A stretch of DNA of 64,000 bases from Escherichia coli 042. GTDB taxonomy: Bacteria; Pseudomonadota; Gammaproteobacteria; Enterobacterales; Enterobacteriaceae. Location: NCBI RefSeq assembly GCF_000027125.1, contig NC_017626.1; one strand, 5' to 3'. The position numbers were made by a program, and so were the translations under genes. Positions within the stretch are counted from its first letter, which is position 1. Each line of letters opens with the position of its first letter. Positions 16,079 through 39,237 of this stretch are shown piece by piece. The notes beneath the pieces are model-generated. The model worked only from the letters and a program-made list of their open reading frames with translations. It was not told the origin of the DNA and did not search any database.

Positions 16079-16337
16079 AAGAGTGGCGGGAAGCGTGGCA
16101 AAAACGGGCTTTTGCTCACATTTCAAATGGTTATAAACATACTTATATAGCGATTAATTCACCAGAGATATTTATGTCGGTTTGTTCTCTCACCAGAATT
16201 TAACACTAAAAGAGCAGGTAAAATTGTCTGAATGTTCTTTAAGTTATTCATAAAGCAAATTAATAAATCTGATGAATATGTTAACCTTCAGCGACATCAT
16301 CGGTGAAAACCTATAAATGAAGAAGGAAAGCAAAAAA

Positions 16338-16826
16338 ATGAAGACCATTCTACCTGCAGTATTGTTTGCCGCTTTCGCCACCACTTCCGCCTGGGCGGCA
16401 GAAAGCGTCCAGCCACTGGAAAAAATCGCGCCTTATCCACAAGCTGAAAAAGGCATGAAGCGTCAGGTGATTCAGTTAACCCCGCAAGAAGATGAATCTA
16501 CCCTGAAAGTAGAACTGTTAATCGGCCAGACGCTGGAAGTCGATTGCAATTTGCATCGTCTCGGCGGGAAGCTGGAAAGCAAAACGCTGGAAGGCTGGGG
16601 CTATGATTATTACGTCTTTGATAAAGTTAGCTCGCCGGTTTCCACGATGATGGCCTGCCCGGATGGCAAGAAAGAGAAGAAATTTGTCACCGCGTATCTG
16701 GGCGATGCCGGAATGCTGCGTTATAACAGCAAGCTGCCGATCGTGGTGTATACGCCAGACAATGTGGATGTGAAGTACCGCATCTGGAAGGCGGAAGAGA
16801 AAATTGACAACGCGGTAGTTCGCTAA
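16338..16826 (+). CDS. eco: Ecotin, periplasmic serine protease inhibitor
   Basis: Start set at [13 protein letters not shown] (162 aa) with signal peptide; upstream in-frame ATG of track ORF judged not the true start. Confidence 0.9.
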
Positions 16827-16849: not shown

Positions 16850-16973
16850 GTAGGTCGGATAAGGCGGTCACGCCGCATCCGACATCTAACGCCCGAGCCG
16901 GTTGACTGATGCGACGCTGACGCGTCTTATCTGCATATGCCACATCCGGCATACCATGCCGGATGTGGCATAT
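16850..16973. repeat. REP-like palindromes plus 18-bp perfect inverted-repeat hairpin between convergent eco and mqo
   Basis: gtaggtcggataaggcggtcacgccgcatccgac (REP-like) and atatgccacatccggcat-acc-atgccggatgtggcatat perfect hairpin at 16935..16973. Confidence 0.6.
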
Positions 16974-16975
16974 CA

Positions 16976-18634
<1,659 letters not shown>

Positions 18635-31747: not shown

Positions 31748-31913
31748 AGGGGCGAAGCTCCGCCTCAGGTGACCGATGGAGTGTGGTTAAGGTAGCGGTA
31801 AAAGCGTGTTACCGCAATGTTCTCTCTTCTCTGGAATATGATACACCGCCGAGAAATCATCACCTTAACCTCTGATAATCGTCATATACCGGACAAGACT
31901 AGTGGATTTCAGC

Positions 31914-33740
31914 ATGCATTATATGAAGTGGATTTATCCACGCCGCTTACGCAATCAAATGATTCTGATGGCAATCCTGATGGTCATTGTCCCAACGCTT
32001 ACTATTGGTTATATCGTAGAAACGGAAGGACGTTCAGCAGTCTTATCTGAAAAAGAGAAAAAACTTTCTGCCGTGGTCAACCTGCTTAATCAGGCACTAG
32101 GCGATCGCTATGATCTCTACATCGACTTACCACGTGAGGAGCGTATCCGCGCATTAAATGCAGAACTTGCCCCCATTACCGAAAATATCACTCACGCCTT
32201 CCCTGGCATCGGCGCTGGTTATTACAACAAAACGCTGGATGCGATAATCACCTACGCGCCTTCAGCGCTATATCAGAATAATGTCGGCGTTACCATTGCC
32301 GCAGATCACCCTGGTCGCGAAGTCATGCGTACAAATACCCCTTTGGTTTATTCAGGCAGGCAGGTGCGCGGCGATATTTTGAATTCAATGATCCCCATTG
32401 AGCGTAATGGTGAAATCCTCGGCTATATCTGGGCCAATGAATTAACCGAAGATATTCGCCGCCAGGCCTGGAAAATGGATGTGAGGATTATCATTGTGCT
32501 CACCGCCGGTTTGCTGATAAGCCTGCTGTTGATTGTCCTTTTCTCCCGTCGCCTGAGCGCCAATATTGATATCATCACCGATGGCCTCTCGACTCTGGCG
32601 CAAAATATTCCCACTCGATTACCACAATTGCCCGGTGAAATGGGGCAAATCAGTCAGAGTGTTAACAACCTCGCCCAGGCACTGCGTGAAACGCGGACAC
32701 TTAACGATCTGATTATTGAAAACGCTGCCGATGGCGTCATTGCCATTGACCGCCAGGGTGATGTAACCACCATGAACCCGGCAGCAGAAGTCATCACTGG
32801 CTATCAACGTCATGAACTGGTAGGGCAGCCTTACTCCATGTTGTTCGACAATACTCAGTTCTACAGTCCAGTACTGGATACGCTGGAACATGGCACCGAA
32901 CATGTGGCGCTGGAGATCAGTTTTCCAGGCCGTGACCGCACCATTGAACTCAGTGTCACTACCAGTCGTATTCATAACACGCATGGTGAAATGATAGGTG
33001 CTTTGGTGATTTTCTCTGATTTAACTGCCCGCAAAGAAACCCAGCGCCGCATGGCGCAAGCAGAACGCCTCGCCACACTGGGTGAGCTGATGGCTGGCGT
33101 CGCGCATGAAGTACGTAATCCGCTAACGGCTATTCGTGGTTATGTACAGATCTTGCGCCAACAAACCAGCGACCTAATACATCAGGAATATCTGTCCGTA
33201 GTACTCAAAGAAATCGATTCAATTAACAAAGTTATTCAGCAATTGCTCGAATTTTCACGTCCACGCCACAGTCAATGGCAACAAGTCAGTCTCAATGCAT
33301 TGGTTGAAGAAACTCTGGTACTGGTACAAACCGCCGGCGTACAAGCGCGGGTCGACTTCATAAGCGAACTGGATAATGAATTAAACCCGATTAACGCCGA
33401 TCGTGAACTGCTCAAACAGGTACTACTGAATATCCTGATCAATGCCGTCCAGGCTATCAGCGCACGAGGGAAAATTCGCATTCAAACCTGGCAATACAGC
33501 GACTCACAACAGGCCATTTCGATAGAGGACAACGGCTGTGGCATTGATCTCTCGCTGCAAAAAAAGATCTTCGATCCCTTTTTCACCACCAAAGCCTCTG
33601 GAACCGGGCTTGGTCTGGCGTTAAGTCAACGCATCATTAATGCCCATCAGGGTGATATTCGCGTCGCCAGTTTGCCGGGCTACGGCGCAACCTTCACGCT
33701 TATTTTACCGATCAATCCGCAGGGAAATCAGACTGTATGA
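31914..33740 (+). CDS. atoS: Sensor histidine kinase AtoS
   Basis: Membrane sensor with PAS, HisKA (H-box GVAHEVRNPL) and HATPase domains; start set at MHYMKW (608 aa); 4-nt overlap with atoC. Confidence 0.85.
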   Translation: MHYMKWIYPRRLRNQMILMAILMVIVPTLTIGYIVETEGRSAVLSEKEKKLSAVVNLLNQALGDRYDLYIDLPREERIRALNAELAPITENITHAFPGIGAGYYNKTLDAIITYAPSALYQNNVGVTIAADHPGREVMRTNTPLVYSGRQVRGDILNSMIPIERNGEILGYIWANELTEDIRRQAWKMDVRIIIVLTAGLLISLLLIVLFSRRLSANIDIITDGLSTLAQNIPTRLPQLPGEMGQISQSVNNLAQALRETRTLNDLIIENAADGVIAIDRQGDVTTMNPAAEVITGYQRHELVGQPYSMLFDNTQFYSPVLDTLEHGTEHVALEISFPGRDRTIELSVTTSRIHNTHGEMIGALVIFSDLTARKETQRRMAQAERLATLGELMAGVAHEVRNPLTAIRGYVQILRQQTSDLIHQEYLSVVLKEIDSINKVIQQLLEFSRPRHSQWQQVSLNALVEETLVLVQTAGVQARVDFISELDNELNPINADRELLKQVLLNILINAVQAISARGKIRIQTWQYSDSQQAISIEDNGCGIDLSLQKKIFDPFFTTKASGTGLGLALSQRIINAHQGDIRVASLPGYGATFTLILPINPQGNQTV

Positions 33741-35122
33741 CTGCTATTAATCGCATCCTTATTGTGGATGATGAAGATAATGTTCGCCGTATGCTGAGCA
33801 CCGCTTTTGCACTACAAGGATTCGAAACACATTGTGCGAACAACGGACGCACAGCATTACACCTGTTTGCCGATATTCACCCTGACGTGGTGTTGATGGA
33901 TATCCGCATGCCAGAGATGGACGGCATCAAGGCACTCAAGGAGATGCGCAGCCATGAGACACGGACCCCCGTTATTCTGATGACGGCCTATGCTGAAGTG
34001 GAAACCGCCGTCGAAGCGCTACGCTGCGGGGCCTTCGACTATGTTATCAAACCGTTTGATCTCGATGAGTTGAATTTAATCGTTCAGCGCGCTTTACAAC
34101 TCCAGTCAATGAAAAAAGAGATCCGTCATCTGCACCAGGCACTGAGCACCAGCTGGCAATGGGGGCACATTCTCACCAACAGCCCTGCGATGATGGATAT
34201 CTGCAAAGACACCGCCAAAATTGCCCTTTCTCAGGCCAGCGTCTTGATTAGCGGTGAAAGCGGCACCGGGAAAGAGTTGATTGCCAGAGCGATTCACTAC
34301 AATTCGCGGCGGGCAAAGGGGCCGTTCATTAAAGTCAACTGCGCGGCGCTGCCGGAATCGTTGCTCGAAAGTGAACTGTTTGGTCATGAAAAAGGTGCAT
34401 TTACTGGTGCACAAACCTTGCGTCAGGGATTATTTGAACGTGCCAACGAAGGTACTCTGCTCCTCGACGAAATTGGCGAAATGCCGCTCGTACTGCAAGC
34501 CAAATTACTACGCATTCTGCAGGAACGGGAATTTGAACGGATTGGCGGCCATCAGACCATAAAAGTTGATATCCGCATCATTGCTGCCACCAACCGTGAC
34601 TTGCAGGCAATGGTAAAAGAAGGCACCTTCCGTGAAGATCTCTTTTATCGCCTTAACGTTATTCATTTAATACTGCCGCCTCTGCGCGATCGCCGGGAAG
34701 ATATTTCCCTGTTAGCTAATCACTTTTTGCAAAAATTCAGTAGTGAGAATCAGCGCGATATTATCGACATCGATCCGATGGCAATGTCACTGCTTACCGC
34801 CTGGTCATGGCCGGGAAATATTCGAGAGCTTTCCAACGTTATTGAACGCGCCGTCGTGATGAACTCAGGCCCGATCATTTTTTCTGAGGATCTTCCGCCG
34901 CAGATTCGTCAGCCAGTCTGTAATGCTGGCGAGGTAAAAACATCCCCTGTCGGTGAGCGTAATTTAAAAGAGGAAATTAAACGCGTCGAAAAACGCATCA
35001 TTATGGAAGTGCTGGAACAACAAGAAGGAAACCGAACCCGCACTGCTTTAATGCTGGGCATCAGTCGCCGTGCATTGATGTATAAACTCCAGGAATACGG
35101 TATCGATCCGGCGGATGTATAA
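33737..35122 (+). CDS. atoC: Sigma-54-dependent response regulator AtoC
   Basis: 461 aa: receiver, AAA+ sigma-54 activator domain (GESGTGKE, GAFTGA motif), C-terminal HTH. Confidence 0.9.
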   Translation: MTAINRILIVDDEDNVRRMLSTAFALQGFETHCANNGRTALHLFADIHPDVVLMDIRMPEMDGIKALKEMRSHETRTPVILMTAYAEVETAVEALRCGAFDYVIKPFDLDELNLIVQRALQLQSMKKEIRHLHQALSTSWQWGHILTNSPAMMDICKDTAKIALSQASVLISGESGTGKELIARAIHYNSRRAKGPFIKVNCAALPESLLESELFGHEKGAFTGAQTLRQGLFERANEGTLLLDEIGEMPLVLQAKLLRILQEREFERIGGHQTIKVDIRIIAATNRDLQAMVKEGTFREDLFYRLNVIHLILPPLRDRREDISLLANHFLQKFSSENQRDIIDIDPMAMSLLTAWSWPGNIRELSNVIERAVVMNSGPIIFSEDLPPQIRQPVCNAGEVKTSPVGERNLKEEIKRVEKRIIMEVLEQQEGNRTRTALMLGISRRALMYKLQEYGIDPADV

Positions 35123-35133
35123 CGCCAAAACTT

Positions 35134-35174
35134 GCTATGCAGAAATTTGCACAGTGCGCAATTTTCTGCATAGC
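35134..35174. promoter_or_regulatory. AtoC enhancer-like inverted repeat upstream of atoD
   Basis: gctatgcagaaa-N17-tttctgcatagc, a perfect 12-bp inverted repeat centred about 129 bp upstream of the inferred sigma-54 start. Confidence 0.6.
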
Positions 35175-35256
35175 CGCTCATTCTCCTTATGAATCCCCAT
35201 CTAATTTATCCCTTCATATTCAATTAGTTAAATAACAAAATCCAATAATCTCATTC

Positions 35257-35272
35257 TGGCACTCCCCTTGCT
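35257..35272 (+). promoter_or_regulatory. Sigma-54 (-24/-12) promoter of atoDAEB
   Basis: TGGCAC-tcccc-TTGCT matches TGGCAC-N5-TTGCW, 46 bp upstream of atoD start codon. Confidence 0.65.
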
Positions 35273-35317
35273 ATTCCATGACTGTACCCACAACGGTGTA
35301 TGCAAGAGGGATAAAAA

Positions 35318-35980
35318 ATGAAAACAAAATTGATGACATTACAAGACGCCACCGGCTTCTTTCGTGACGGCATGACCATCATGGTGGGCGGATTTATGGG
35401 GATTGGCACTCCATCCCGCCTGGTTGAAGCATTACTGGAATCTGGTGTTCGCGACCTGACATTGATAGCCAATGATACCGCGTTTGTTGATACTGGCATC
35501 GGTCCGCTCATCGTCAATGGTCGAGTCCGCAAAGTGATTGCTTCACATATCGGCACCAACCCGGAAACAGGTCGGCGCATGATATCTGGTGAGATGGACG
35601 TCGTTCTGGTGCCGCAAGGTACGCTAATCGAGCAAATTCGCTGTGGTGGAGCTGGACTTGGTGGTTTTCTCACCCCAACGGGTGTCGGCACCGTCGTAGA
35701 GGAAGGCAAACAGACACTGACACTCGACGGTAAAACCTGGCTGCTCGAACGCCCACTGCGCGCCGACCTGGCGCTAATTCGCGCTCATCGTTGCGACACA
35801 CTTGGCAACCTGACCTATCAACTTAGCGCCCGCAACTTTAACCCCCTGATAGCCCTTGCGGCTGATATCACGCTGGTAGAGCCAGATGAACTGGTCGAAA
35901 CCGGCGAGCTGCAACCTGACCATATTGTCACCCCTGGTGCCGTTATCGACCACATCATCGTTTCACAGGAGAGCAAATAA
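35318..35980 (+). CDS. atoD: Acetate CoA-transferase subunit alpha
   Basis: 220 aa CoA-transferase family I subunit A. Confidence 0.9.
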
Positions 35981-36630
35981 TGGATGCGAAACAACGTATT
36001 GCGCGCCGTGTGGCGCAAGAGCTTCGTGATGGTGACATCGTTAACTTAGGGATCGGTTTACCCACAATGGTCGCCAATTATTTACCGGAGGGTATTCATA
36101 TCACTCTGCAATCGGAAAACGGCTTCCTCGGTTTAGGCCCGGTCACGACAGCGCATCCAGATCTGGTGAACGCTGGCGGACAACCGTGCGGTGTTTTACC
36201 CGGTGCAGCCATGTTTGATAGCGCCATGTCATTTGCGCTAATCCGCGGCGGTCATATTGATGCCTGCGTGCTCGGCGGTTTGCAAGTAGACGAAGAAGCA
36301 AACCTCGCGAACTGGGTAGTGCCTGGGAAAATGGTGCCCGGTATGGGTGGCGCGATGGATCTGGTGACCGGGTCGCGCAAAGTGATCATCGCCATGGAAC
36401 ATTGTGCCAAAGATGGTTCAGCAAAAATTTTGCGCCGCTGCACCATGCCACTCACTGCGCAACATGCGGTGCATATGCTGGTTACTGAACTGGCTGTCTT
36501 TCGTTTTATTGACGGCAAAATGTGGCTCACCGAAATTGCCGACGGGTGTGATTTAGCCACCGTGCGTGCCAAAACCGAAGCTCGGTTTGAAGTCGCCGCC
36601 GATCTGAATACGCAACGGGGTGATTTATGA
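35980..36630 (+). CDS. atoA: Acetate CoA-transferase subunit beta
   Basis: 216 aa CoA-transferase subunit B; start overlaps atoD stop. Confidence 0.9.
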   Translation: MDAKQRIARRVAQELRDGDIVNLGIGLPTMVANYLPEGIHITLQSENGFLGLGPVTTAHPDLVNAGGQPCGVLPGAAMFDSAMSFALIRGGHIDACVLGGLQVDEEANLANWVVPGKMVPGMGGAMDLVTGSRKVIIAMEHCAKDGSAKILRRCTMPLTAQHAVHMLVTELAVFRFIDGKMWLTEIADGCDLATVRAKTEARFEVAADLNTQRGDL

Positions 36631-37949
36631 TTGGTCGCATATCGCGTTTTATGACGCGTTTTGTCAGCCGGTGGCTTCCCGATCCACTGATCTTTGCCAT
36701 GTTGCTGACATTGCTAACTTTCGTGATCGCGCTTTGGTTAACACCACAAACGCCGATCAGCATGGTGAAAATGTGGGGTGACGGTTTCTGGAACTTGCTG
36801 GCGTTTGGTATGCAGATGGCGCTTATCATCGTTACCGGTCATGCCCTTGCCAGCTCTGCTCCGGTAAAAAGTTTGCTGCGTACTGCCGCCTCCGCCGCAA
36901 AGACGCCCGTACAGGGCGTCATGCTGGTTACTTTCTTCGGTTCAGTCGCTTGTGTCATCAACTGGGGATTTGGTTTGGTTGTCGGCGCAATGTTTGCCCG
37001 TGAAGTCGCACGCCGAGTACCCGGTTCTGATTATCCGTTGCTCATTGCCTGCGCCTACATTGGTTTTCTCACCTGGGGTGGCGGTTTCTCTGGCTCAATG
37101 CCTCTGTTGGCTGCAACACCGGGCAACCCGGTTGAGCATATCGCCGGGCTGATCCCGGTGGGCGATACTCTGTTCAGTGGTTTTAACATTTTCATCACTG
37201 TGGCGTTGATTGTGGTGATGCCATTTATCACCCGCATGATGATGCCAAAACCGTCTGACGTGGTGAGTATCGATCCGAAACTACTCATGGAAGAGGCTGA
37301 TTTCCAAAAGCAGCTACCGAAAGATGCCCCACCATCCGAGCGACTGGAAGAAAGCCGCATTCTGACGTTGATCATCGGCGCACTCGGTATCGCTTACCTT
37401 GCGATGTACTTCAGCGAACATGCCTTCAACATCACCATCAATACCGTCAACCTGATGTTTATGATTGCGGGTCTGCTGCTACATAAAACGCCAATGGCTT
37501 ATATGCGTGCTATCAGCGCGGCAGCACGCAGTACTGCCGGTATTCTGGTGCAATTCCCCTTCTACGCTGGGATCCAACTGATGATGGAGCACTCCGGTCT
37601 GGGCGGACTCATTACCGAATTCTTCATCAATGTTGCGAACAAAGACACCTTCCCGGTAATGACCTTTTTTAGTTCTGCACTGATTAACTTCGCCGTTCCG
37701 TCTGGCGGCGGTCACTGGGTTATTCAGGGACCTTTCGTGATACCCGCAGCCCAGGCGCTGGGCGCTGATCTCGGTAAATCGGTAATGGCGATCGCCTACG
37801 GCGAGCAATGGATGAACATGGCACAACCATTCTGGGCGCTGCCAGCACTGGCAATCGCCGGACTCGGTGTCCGCGACATCATGGGCTATTGCATCACTGC
37901 CCTGCTCTTCTCCGGCGTCATTTTCGTCGTTGGTTTAACGCTGTTCTGA
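36627..37949 (+). CDS. atoE: Short-chain fatty acid transporter AtoE
   Basis: 440 aa polytopic membrane protein. Confidence 0.85.
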   Translation: MIGRISRFMTRFVSRWLPDPLIFAMLLTLLTFVIALWLTPQTPISMVKMWGDGFWNLLAFGMQMALIIVTGHALASSAPVKSLLRTAASAAKTPVQGVMLVTFFGSVACVINWGFGLVVGAMFAREVARRVPGSDYPLLIACAYIGFLTWGGGFSGSMPLLAATPGNPVEHIAGLIPVGDTLFSGFNIFITVALIVVMPFITRMMMPKPSDVVSIDPKLLMEEADFQKQLPKDAPPSERLEESRILTLIIGALGIAYLAMYFSEHAFNITINTVNLMFMIAGLLLHKTPMAYMRAISAAARSTAGILVQFPFYAGIQLMMEHSGLGGLITEFFINVANKDTFPVMTFFSSALINFAVPSGGGHWVIQGPFVIPAAQALGADLGKSVMAIAYGEQWMNMAQPFWALPALAIAGLGVRDIMGYCITALLFSGVIFVVGLTLF

Positions 37950-37979
37950 CGGCAACCCTACAGACAGAAGGAATAAAAA

Positions 37980-39164
37980 ATGAAAAATTGTGTCATCGTC
38001 AGTGCGGTACGTACTGCTATCGGTAGTTTTAACGGTTCACTCGCTTCCACCAGCGCCATCGACCTGGGGGCGACAGTAATTAAAGCCGCCATTGAACGTG
38101 CAAAAATCGATTCACTACACATTGATGAAGTGATTATGGGTAACGTGTTGCAAGCCGGGTTGGGGCAAAATCCGGCACGTCAGGCACTGTTAAAAAGCGG
38201 GCTGGCAGAAACGGTGTGCGGATTCACGGTCAATAAAGTGTGTGGTTCGGGTCTTAAAAGTGTGGCGCTTGCCGCCCAGGCAATTCAGGCAGGTCAGGCG
38301 CAAAGCATTGTGGCGGGGGGTATGGAAAATATGAGTTTAGCGCCCTACTTACTCGATGCAAAAGCACGCTCTGGTTATCGTCTTGGAGACGGACAGGTTT
38401 ATGACGTAATCCTGCGCGATGGTCTGATGTGCGCCACCCATGGTTATCATATGGGGATTACCGCCGAGAACGTGGCCAAAGAGTACGGAATTACCCGAGA
38501 AATGCAGGATGAACTGGCGCTACATTCACAGCGTAAAGCGGCAGCCGCAATTGAGTCCGGTGCTTTTACAGCCGAAATCGTCCCGGTAAATGTTGTCACT
38601 CGGAAGAAAACCTTCGTCTTCAGTCAAGACGAATTCCCGAAAACGGATTCTACGACTGAAGCGTTAGGCGCATTGCGCCCGGCCTTCGATAAAGCAGGAA
38701 CAGTCACCGCCGGGAACGCGTCTGGTATTAACGACGGTGCTGCCGCTCTGGTGGTTATGGAAGAATCTGCGGCGCTGGCAGCAGGCCTTACCCCCCTGGC
38801 TCGCATTAAAAGTTATGCCAGCGGTGGCGTGCCCCCCGCATTGATGGGTATGGGGCCAGTACCTGCCACGCAAAAAGCGTTACAACTGGCGGGGCTGCAA
38901 CTGGCGGATATTGATCTCATTGAGGCTAATGAAGCATTTGCCGCGCAGTTCCTTGCCGTTGGGAAAACCCTGGGCTTTGATTCTGAGAAAGTGAATGTCA
39001 ACGGCGGGGCCATCGCGCTCGGGCATCCTATCGGTGCCAGTGGTGCTCGTATTCTGGTCACACTATTACATGCCATGCAGGCACGCGATAAAACGCTGGG
39101 GCTGGCAACACTGTGCATTGGTGGCGGCCAGGGAATTGCGATGGTGATTGAACGGTTGAATTAA
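37980..39164 (+). CDS. atoB: Acetyl-CoA acetyltransferase (thiolase II)
   Basis: 394 aa thiolase with active-site Cys region ([11 protein letters not shown]) and C-terminal GGGQG. Confidence 0.9.
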
Positions 39165-39176
39165 TCAATAAAAACA

Positions 39177-39207
39177 CCCGATAGCGAAAGTTATCGGGCG
39201 TTTTCTT
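39177..39207. terminator. Hairpin terminator between convergent atoB and yfaP
   Basis: cccgata-gcgaaagt-tatcggg followed by cgttttctt. Confidence 0.6.
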
Positions 39208-39237
39208 GAACATCGACGGCGAAGGTAACCCCATTAA

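Follow-up and report, generated by a model that had tools for sequence, protein, structure and literature searches.

The 195-bp spacer between atoC and atoD in Escherichia coli 042 is, with a probability of about 0.95, the acetoacetate-inducible promoter of the atoDAEB operon of E. coli. It lies in a stretch of 64,000 nucleotides, which we call the window. The elements themselves, their statistics, their identity with K-12 and their conservation and phasing across genera were observed directly, and AtoC binding, sigma-54 binding and acetoacetate inducibility would carry over from the literature on the identical K-12 sequences.

The positions from 35123 to 35317 correspond to the entire atoC-atoD spacer, no more and no less, in a region where RcsC on the - strand is followed on the + strand by AtoS, AtoC, AtoD, AtoA, AtoE and AtoB. 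The open reading frames and the NCBIfam profile matches showed that the reading frames of the six ato genes are all intact, and each ato product scores above the curated cut-off of its NCBIfam model. In particular, AtoC reaches 1003.7 bits against a cut-off of 714 over its full length (1 to 461 of 461 residues) in the AtoC equivalog model, so that the cognate activator, with its receiver, AAA+ and HTH domains, is present and intact. Alongside it, AtoS reaches 995 bits against a cut-off of 646 over residues 5 to 611 of the 612-aa ORF in the AtoS equivalog model; this mechanically called frame begins at the GTG at 31902. The genes and the features associated with their expression are as follows.

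31914 to 33740, + strand: atoS, sensor histidine kinase, 608 aa from the ATG at 31914 (NCBIfam AtoS equivalog)
33737 to 35122, + strand: atoC, sigma-54-dependent response regulator (bacterial enhancer-binding protein), 461 aa (NCBIfam AtoC equivalog)
35306 to 35311, + strand: Shine-Dalgarno sequence GAGGGA, 6 nt from the ATG of atoD (read off the sequence)
35318 to 39164, + strand: atoDAEB operon (ORFs and NCBIfam)
35318 to 35980, + strand: atoD, acetate CoA-transferase subunit (NCBIfam alpha/beta matches for atoD and atoA)
35980 to 36630, + strand: atoA, acetate CoA-transferase subunit (same NCBIfam alpha/beta matches)
36627 to 37949, + strand: atoE, transporter family TIGR00366
37980 to 39164, + strand: atoB, acetyl-CoA C-acetyltransferase (NCBIfam)
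39177 to 39208, + strand: terminator-like hairpin with a T-rich tail 3' of atoB (9-bp stem with 5 GC pairs, then CGTTTTCTTG)

Within the spacer and at its downstream end, we recognized the following regulatory elements.

35134 to 35153, + strand: AtoC site 1, left half of the enhancer, GCTATGCAGAAATTTGCACA, identical to the K-12 site at -184 to -165
35155 to 35174, - strand: AtoC site 2, right half of the enhancer, TGCGCAATTTTCTGCATAGC, reverse complement GCTATGCAGAAAATTGCGCA, identical to the K-12 site at -163 to -144
35218 to 35230, + strand: IHF-like site ATTCAATTAGTTA, midway between enhancer and promoter, one mismatch to WATCAANNNNTTR (consensus scan and conserved position)
35256 to 35272, + strand: sigma-54 promoter made of CTGGCAC (-24 box, GG at 35258 to 35259), TCCCC and TTGCT (-12 box, GC at 35270 to 35271) (motif scan and K-12 identity)
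35280 to 35283, + strand: predicted transcription start region (35283 from the motif-centre rule, 35280 to 35281 from a published footprint)
35282 to 35289, + strand: conserved 5' UTR block CTGTACCC, opening the predicted atoD mRNA, complementary to nt 4 to 11 of the Spot 42 sRNA

On the basis of this arrangement, the sigma-54 RNA polymerase would wait as a closed complex on the -24/-12 element (35256 to 35272) until, in response to acetoacetate, AtoS phosphorylates AtoC. Phosphorylated AtoC would then assemble into an ATPase oligomer on the 41-bp enhancer (35134 to 35174), whose two adjacent dimer sites would share a face of the helix. Bending of the DNA at the A/T-rich IHF-like site (35218 to 35230) would carry this oligomer to the polymerase. 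ATP hydrolysis would open the promoter, with transcription starting at about 35280 to 35283 and yielding an atoD-atoA-atoE-atoB mRNA with a 5' UTR of about 35 nt. In K-12, the induction of Pato by acetoacetate occurs only when atoS and atoC are present (Rutter et al., PMC7618054).

The preliminary description of this region had placed a -24/-12 element, TGGCAC-N5-TTGCT, 46 bp before atoD, and had proposed a sigma-54 motif scan as a check. The element was indeed found at 35257 to 35272 on the + strand (TGGCACTCCCCTTGCT), with its final base 46 nt from the atoD ATG at 35318 and with the GG and GC doublets exactly 10 bp apart, and the scan returned it as the only exact match to TGGCAC-N5-TTGCW (TGGCACNNNNNTTGCW) in 64 kb, where 0.11 were expected. 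At least one exact match occurred in 10 of 100 shuffles and, taken alone, the single exact match is only mildly unlikely to arise by chance; with one mismatch allowed, the scan of the 64-kb window is at chance level (2 found versus 3.5 expected). A site at 58338 to 58353 on the - strand falls within the chance expectation at its stringency. No sigma-70-like promoter was found on the + strand in a scan of 34800 to 35600, which includes the spacer. The 9-nt sequence TGGCACTCC occurs twice, in the -24 box (35257 to 35265) and inside atoD (35404 to 35412), and the second copy was ruled out as a promoter, having no -12 box.

The identity with K-12 gives this element a functional counterpart. In K-12, a sigma-54 ChIP-seq peak, named OS21, contains the motif CTGGCACTCCCCTTGCT, with a predicted start 35 bp before atoD, and the corresponding promoter is flagged as experimentally confirmed in EcoCyc (PMC4591121); furthermore, an in vitro gSELEX peak of the RpoN holoenzyme falls in the atoC/atoD spacer (Shimada et al. 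2021, PMC8743547). The same 17-mer sits at 35256 to 35272 in the window, where the binding of sigma-54 would be expected from these reports on an identical sequence. By the rule that places the start 19 bp past the motif centre (PMC4591121, Table 1 footnotes), its centre at 35264 gives a predicted start at 35283, which is the very position, about 35283, that had been proposed beforehand, and a predicted atoD 5' UTR of about 35 nt up to the ATG at 35318. This is also the origin to which the coordinates of the enhancer given below refer. A published AtoC footprint reportedly extends from -146 to -107 and, when this footprint is mapped onto the palindrome, the start moves to 35280 to 35281, 2 to 3 nt upstream of 35283. 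It is from these two approaches that we infer the exact start nucleotide in strain 042.

Upstream of the promoter, the spacer contains a palindrome organized as 20+1+20 bp, with arms at 35134 to 35153 and 35155 to 35174 that are complementary at 18 of 20 positions and separated by a single nucleotide. In simulations with a first-order Markov model, a palindrome of this kind was expected 0.005 times per 64 kb and appeared at all in 1 of 200 runs. The perfect 12-bp inverted repeat previously described here holds insofar as its arms, gctatgcagaaa (35134 to 35145) and tttctgcatagc (35163 to 35174), pair perfectly; it does not describe the functional unit, which is the whole 20+1+20 structure, the 12-mers being just its outer part. 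Its distance of about 110 to 150 bp upstream agrees with our measurement, the palindrome spanning -149 to -109 relative to 35283. Likewise, its attribution to AtoC is borne out by the experimentally bound AtoC sites of K-12 atoD, GCTATGCAGAAATTTGCACA (+ strand, -184 to -165) and GCTATGCAGAAAATTGCGCA (- strand, -163 to -144, both counted from the gene start; Pilalis et al. 2011, PMC3118216, Table 5), as both 20-mers match the window letter for letter and their offsets from the ATG at 35318 are also equal. In PMC3118216, AtoC binding in K-12 is documented by ChIP and gel shift, and the experimental verification of the 40-bp palindrome, for which ChIP was among the methods, is credited to Matta et al. 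2007. The binding of AtoC in strain 042 would carry over from these identical sites. The intact acetoacetate-inducible circuit that had been proposed is likewise what we find, AtoS, AtoC and AtoDAEB being intact and the elements identical to those of K-12.

AtoC site 1 holds TATGCAG-AAAT-TTGCACA, which resembles a dimer site, with two mismatches to TGTGCAA-N4-TTGCACA. Each 20-bp half resembles such a site, and we infer that each is a single AtoC dimer site whose inner half-site is strong and whose outer one is weak, the palindrome consisting of two such sites that would abut. A repeated or mobile-element origin of the palindrome was considered and rejected, since genomes have it in a single copy. 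At 16934 to 16974 lies the only other 20+20 palindrome of similar quality in the window (GCATATGCCACATCCGGCAT-ACC-ATGCCGGATGTGGCATATC), between convergent ORFs at 16317 to 16826 (+ strand) and 16976 to 18622 (- strand), and it has the look of a REP-like element or of a hairpin that terminates transcription in both directions.

As regards the IHF-like site, the scan for WATCAANNNNTTR at one mismatch gave 60 matches in the window versus 51 expected, so that the occurrence of ATTCAATTAGTTA is, by itself, at background level. Because of this, it is position and conservation that speak for the site: the block keeps its place across genera in the 20-species alignment, where a perfect TATCAATGCATTA is found in Morganella. 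IHF is reportedly required at this promoter, and we consider 35218 to 35230 the putative IHF site.

Within E. coli, a 241-nt query covering 35100 to 35340 was found in single copy in 3923 of 5426 complete genomes. It matches E. coli strain C4 at 100% and a K-12-like chromosome at 97.5% identity, and it reaches at least 99% identity in 14 of the 3923 genomes, so this exact spacer allele is rare. The 49-nt segment with both AtoC sites is instead 100% identical in 3539 of 3918 genomes (90% of the carriers), and the 71-nt segment from the IHF-like site to the promoter reaches at least 99% identity in 267 of 3861. Six single-base differences separate the spacer from the K-12-like one (35124, 35191, 35202, 35237, 35276 and 35278), all of them outside the palindrome, the IHF-like core and the -24/-12 boxes; the substitutions at 35276 and 35278 (about -7 and -5) are strain specific and lie between the -12 box and the start. 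In a four-strain alignment, the variation is confined to the linkers, the enhancer and the -24/-12 boxes are fixed, and so is the region from 35279 to the ATG, save for one base immediately 5' of the ATG.

Of the 5426 complete E. coli genomes, 1503 lack the ato spacer, and in one case it is carried by a plasmid; this places the ato locus in the variable gene pool of the species. In E. coli CUVM53 (locus L002, 2501 to 2700; 35257 to 35412 in the window), about 147 bp between the two copies of TGGCACTCC are deleted, with loss of the -12 box, the 5' UTR and the N terminus of atoD, which is annotated as a pseudogene in that strain. This looks like a short-repeat-mediated deletion that would inactivate the operon.

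The comparison across genera provides the strongest evidence against chance for both elements. One scan of species-representative genomes with AtoD yielded 80 loci and, in about 50 Enterobacterales species, TGGCA(C/T)-N5-TTGC(T/A) occurs 56 to 66 nt 5' of the atoD start with 0 to 2 mismatches, mostly 0 or 1; nearly all of these species encode an AtoC homologue directly upstream. The 20-1-20 enhancer is retained at the matching position in 36 of these loci, belonging to Escherichia, Citrobacter, Edwardsiella, Atlantibacter, Raoultella, Entomohabitans, Symbiopectobacterium, Serratia and Morganella, and all 36 core-bearing loci have an AtoC homologue directly upstream, with the match at L036 covering residues 139 to 298 only and no full ORF being found there. 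The inner core TTGCRCA-N-TGYGCAA is invariant across genera and the outer 12-mer is not. In particular, the two halves in Edwardsiella ictaluri, TGTGCAAAATGTTGCACA and TGTGCAAAGCGCTGCACA, are two near-perfect copies of TGTGCAA-N4-TTGCACA in the same register, and a single perfect or near-perfect copy of this sequence is present in the more distant genera Limnobaculum, Budvicia, Yersinia, Leminorella, Photorhabdus and Hafnia.

The distance from the enhancer centre to the beginning of the -24 box (35154 to 35257 in the window) falls into classes of 96, 102 to 106, 116 to 118 and 135 to 136 bp (loci L003 to L045). These steps of about 10.5 bp, or about one helical turn, suggest a face-of-helix constraint, as would follow if activator and polymerase have to face each other across a bend. 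Furthermore, the full-spacer alignment of 20 species shows four footprints, namely, the enhancer core, ATTCAAT-N-AGTTA, TGGCA...TTGC and, in the 5' UTR, GTACCC...GG.GTA...GGGA. Both TGGCA and TTGC are invariant in the 20 species, and GG.A of the atoD Shine-Dalgarno sequence is invariant among the species aligned.

Distant AtoD homologues in Bacillus/Neobacillus, Neisseria and metagenome-assembled genomes of Bacillota and Clostridia (L054, L055, L056, L059, L070, L080 and L081) are also preceded by good -24/-12 elements; in Bacillus sp. J33, TGGCACGTATCTTGCA lies 64 nt upstream of the AtoD homologue. For most of these distant homologues, no AtoC-like gene was found in the 2.5 kb upstream, the exceptions being a partial AtoC-like match at L070 (42% identity) and a short one at L056. 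It is possible to hypothesize that sigma-54 control of this CoA-transferase operon predates the AtoSC system by far.

Differently from the inner core, the outer arms of the enhancer differ by lineage and still remain complementary to their partners, as seen for GCTATGCAG, GCCAGGCAAAG, GCCATGCAATAA, CCGGGAAG and TGAGAAGGAATT (positions corresponding to 35134 to 35145 and 35163 to 35174; loci L027 to L035). Across 37 distinct sequences, 86.6% of the cells pair, and in 11 of the 20 pairs both partners have changed. Covariation scored 0.230, versus 0.118 in shuffles, of which 0 of 500 reached the observed value, and at most 0.079 when the partners are slid against each other. Over the same lineages, the AtoC recognition helix ISRRALMYKLQEY in the C-terminal HTH is invariant, whereas the HTH begins with NRTR or NRTH, and the tail that follows QEYGID is of different length, according to the arm type.

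One explanation, to which we assign about even odds, is that the complementarity of the outer arms has not been selected for structure and would derive either from co-evolution with AtoC contacts outside the recognition helix or from quasi-palindrome template-switch mutation in which one arm is overwritten with a copy of its partner. In E. coli, template switching is well established as a mutational process that corrects quasi-palindromes, and the E. coli variant E69 carries one change that makes the palindrome more perfect. The association of the arm type with the AtoC features mentioned above (NRTR versus NRTH and the tail after QEYGID) also points in this direction, although this correlation is confounded by phylogeny. 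Such an account is compatible with the reading of the spacer as the atoDAEB promoter and is no alternative to it, and co-evolution or template-switch homogenization explains the arm pattern at least as well as an RNA hairpin does.

It is instead doubtful that the enhancer is under selection as a palindrome in itself, with its outer arms replaced several times in the evolution of the enterobacteria by unrelated complementary sequences. This might reflect a second role as a nucleic acid hairpin, either a 3' structure devoid of a U tract that insulates or stabilizes the atoSC mRNA or a cruciform that aids the enhancer, or else lineage-specific AtoC contacts outside the recognition helix.

We regard as slightly less probable still the specific proposal that, instead of or beside binding AtoC, the palindrome forms an RNA hairpin at the 3' end of atoSC, which would terminate, insulate or stabilize the atoSC transcript and prevent constitutive atoSC transcription from running on into atoDAEB. 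The palindrome does begin 11 nt past the atoC stop codon, the RNA fold has an energy of -24.3 kcal/mol with a z-score of -5.1, and both the covariation of the arms and the invariance of the AtoC recognition helix over the same species set would fit such a role. However, the stem is followed at its 3' side by CGCTCATTCTCC and by no T run, the terminator scan of the + strand is empty, and Rfam finds nothing. Moreover, G.T mismatches amount to 32 cells versus 43 cells for A.C, so that no wobble excess appears on the + strand and, with no G.U-compatible excess, the symmetry looks like a property of the DNA and not of the RNA. The distribution of the sites across loci also argues against the hairpin, as L038, L044 and L047 have atoC directly upstream and yet only a single short dimer site, and L037, L039, L046 and L048 carry the dimer site with no atoC upstream. 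The Term-seq supplement of PMC7815308 has no entry for atoC, atoD or atoS, which is a weak negative, atoSC expression being low. As for an intrinsic (Rho-independent) terminator, this candidate was rejected, the palindrome lacking the combination of a G+C-rich stem and a T run.

The remaining possibility, that the motifs are chance matches and that atoDAEB is driven from a sigma-70 promoter in 042, draws on the exact -24/-12 matches arising in 10 of 100 shuffles but is close to negligible and is already refuted within the limits of sequence comparison and the literature, given the + strand of the spacer without a sigma-70-like site, the motifs at a fixed position in about 50 species and the binding of sigma-54, both in vivo and in vitro, to the identical sequence of K-12 (ChIP-seq, PMC4591121; gSELEX, PMC8743547).

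At the predicted start, the block CTGTACCC is a perfect 8-nt complement of nt 4 to 11 of the Spot 42 sRNA (GGGUACAG, from the K-12 Spot 42 sequence), a seed within the single-stranded 5' end of this sRNA, and GTACCC in this 5' UTR is conserved in 18 of the 20 aligned species. The duplex of Spot 42 nt 1 to 11 with 35283 to 35292 has an energy of -12.8 kcal/mol; the energy of the full-length Spot 42/UTR duplex, in a calculation that ignores intramolecular structure, is no better than that of shuffled or random sequences. Since atoD has been reported among the targets of Spot 42 (Beisel 2012, cited by PMC7618054), 35282 to 35289 is probably the Spot 42 pairing site mediating catabolite repression.

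Taken together, these data indicate that strain 042 carries an intact catabolic switch for acetoacetate and short-chain fatty acids, with functional elements identical to those of the K-12 acetoacetate-biosensor system. The promoter and the AtoC site are already known textbook matter, the finding opens no new biology, and the comparative details and the arm covariation are minor refinements. The AtoC operator nonetheless emerges sharper than from K-12 alone, with an invariant inner core, a two-dimer reading, helical phasing and compensatory change in the outer arms, and this comparative picture could guide the design of orthogonal AtoC/Pato sensor variants.

With respect to Pato of K-12, the locus, the 41-bp enhancer, the IHF-like core, the 17-bp sigma-54 motif and all distances to atoD are the same, and the differences are the six single-base changes in the 195-bp spacer of 042. 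The atoC-atoD spacers of other Enterobacterales (Citrobacter, Edwardsiella, Atlantibacter, Raoultella, Serratia and Morganella) share the order of the elements, the inner core, TGGCA...TTGC, the IHF-like block and the 5' UTR block. They differ in the outer arms, which are mutually complementary in each case (e.g., GCCAGGCAAAG/CTTTGCCTGG and TGAGAAGGAATT/AATTCCTTCTCA), and in an enhancer-promoter distance that is longer by about 10, 20 or 30 bp.

A wider term of comparison is given by the NtrC enhancer at glnAp2 and by the IHF-assisted promoters of the NtrC/NifA type, where a -24/-12 element is preceded, about 100 to 150 bp upstream, by tandem dyad-symmetric TGCA dimer sites, and where activators with a Fis-type HTH oligomerize on the DNA and reach the promoter by looping. 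The ato spacer shares with these promoters the -24/-12 element, the tandem dyad-symmetric dimer sites at about 100 to 150 bp upstream and an activator with a Fis-type HTH. Different from NtrC, the two AtoC sites abut, at about 19 bp from centre to centre, forming one long palindrome, and the AtoC half-sites are strong on the inner side and weak on the outer side, with the consensus TGTGCAA-N4-TTGCACA in place of the NtrC site.
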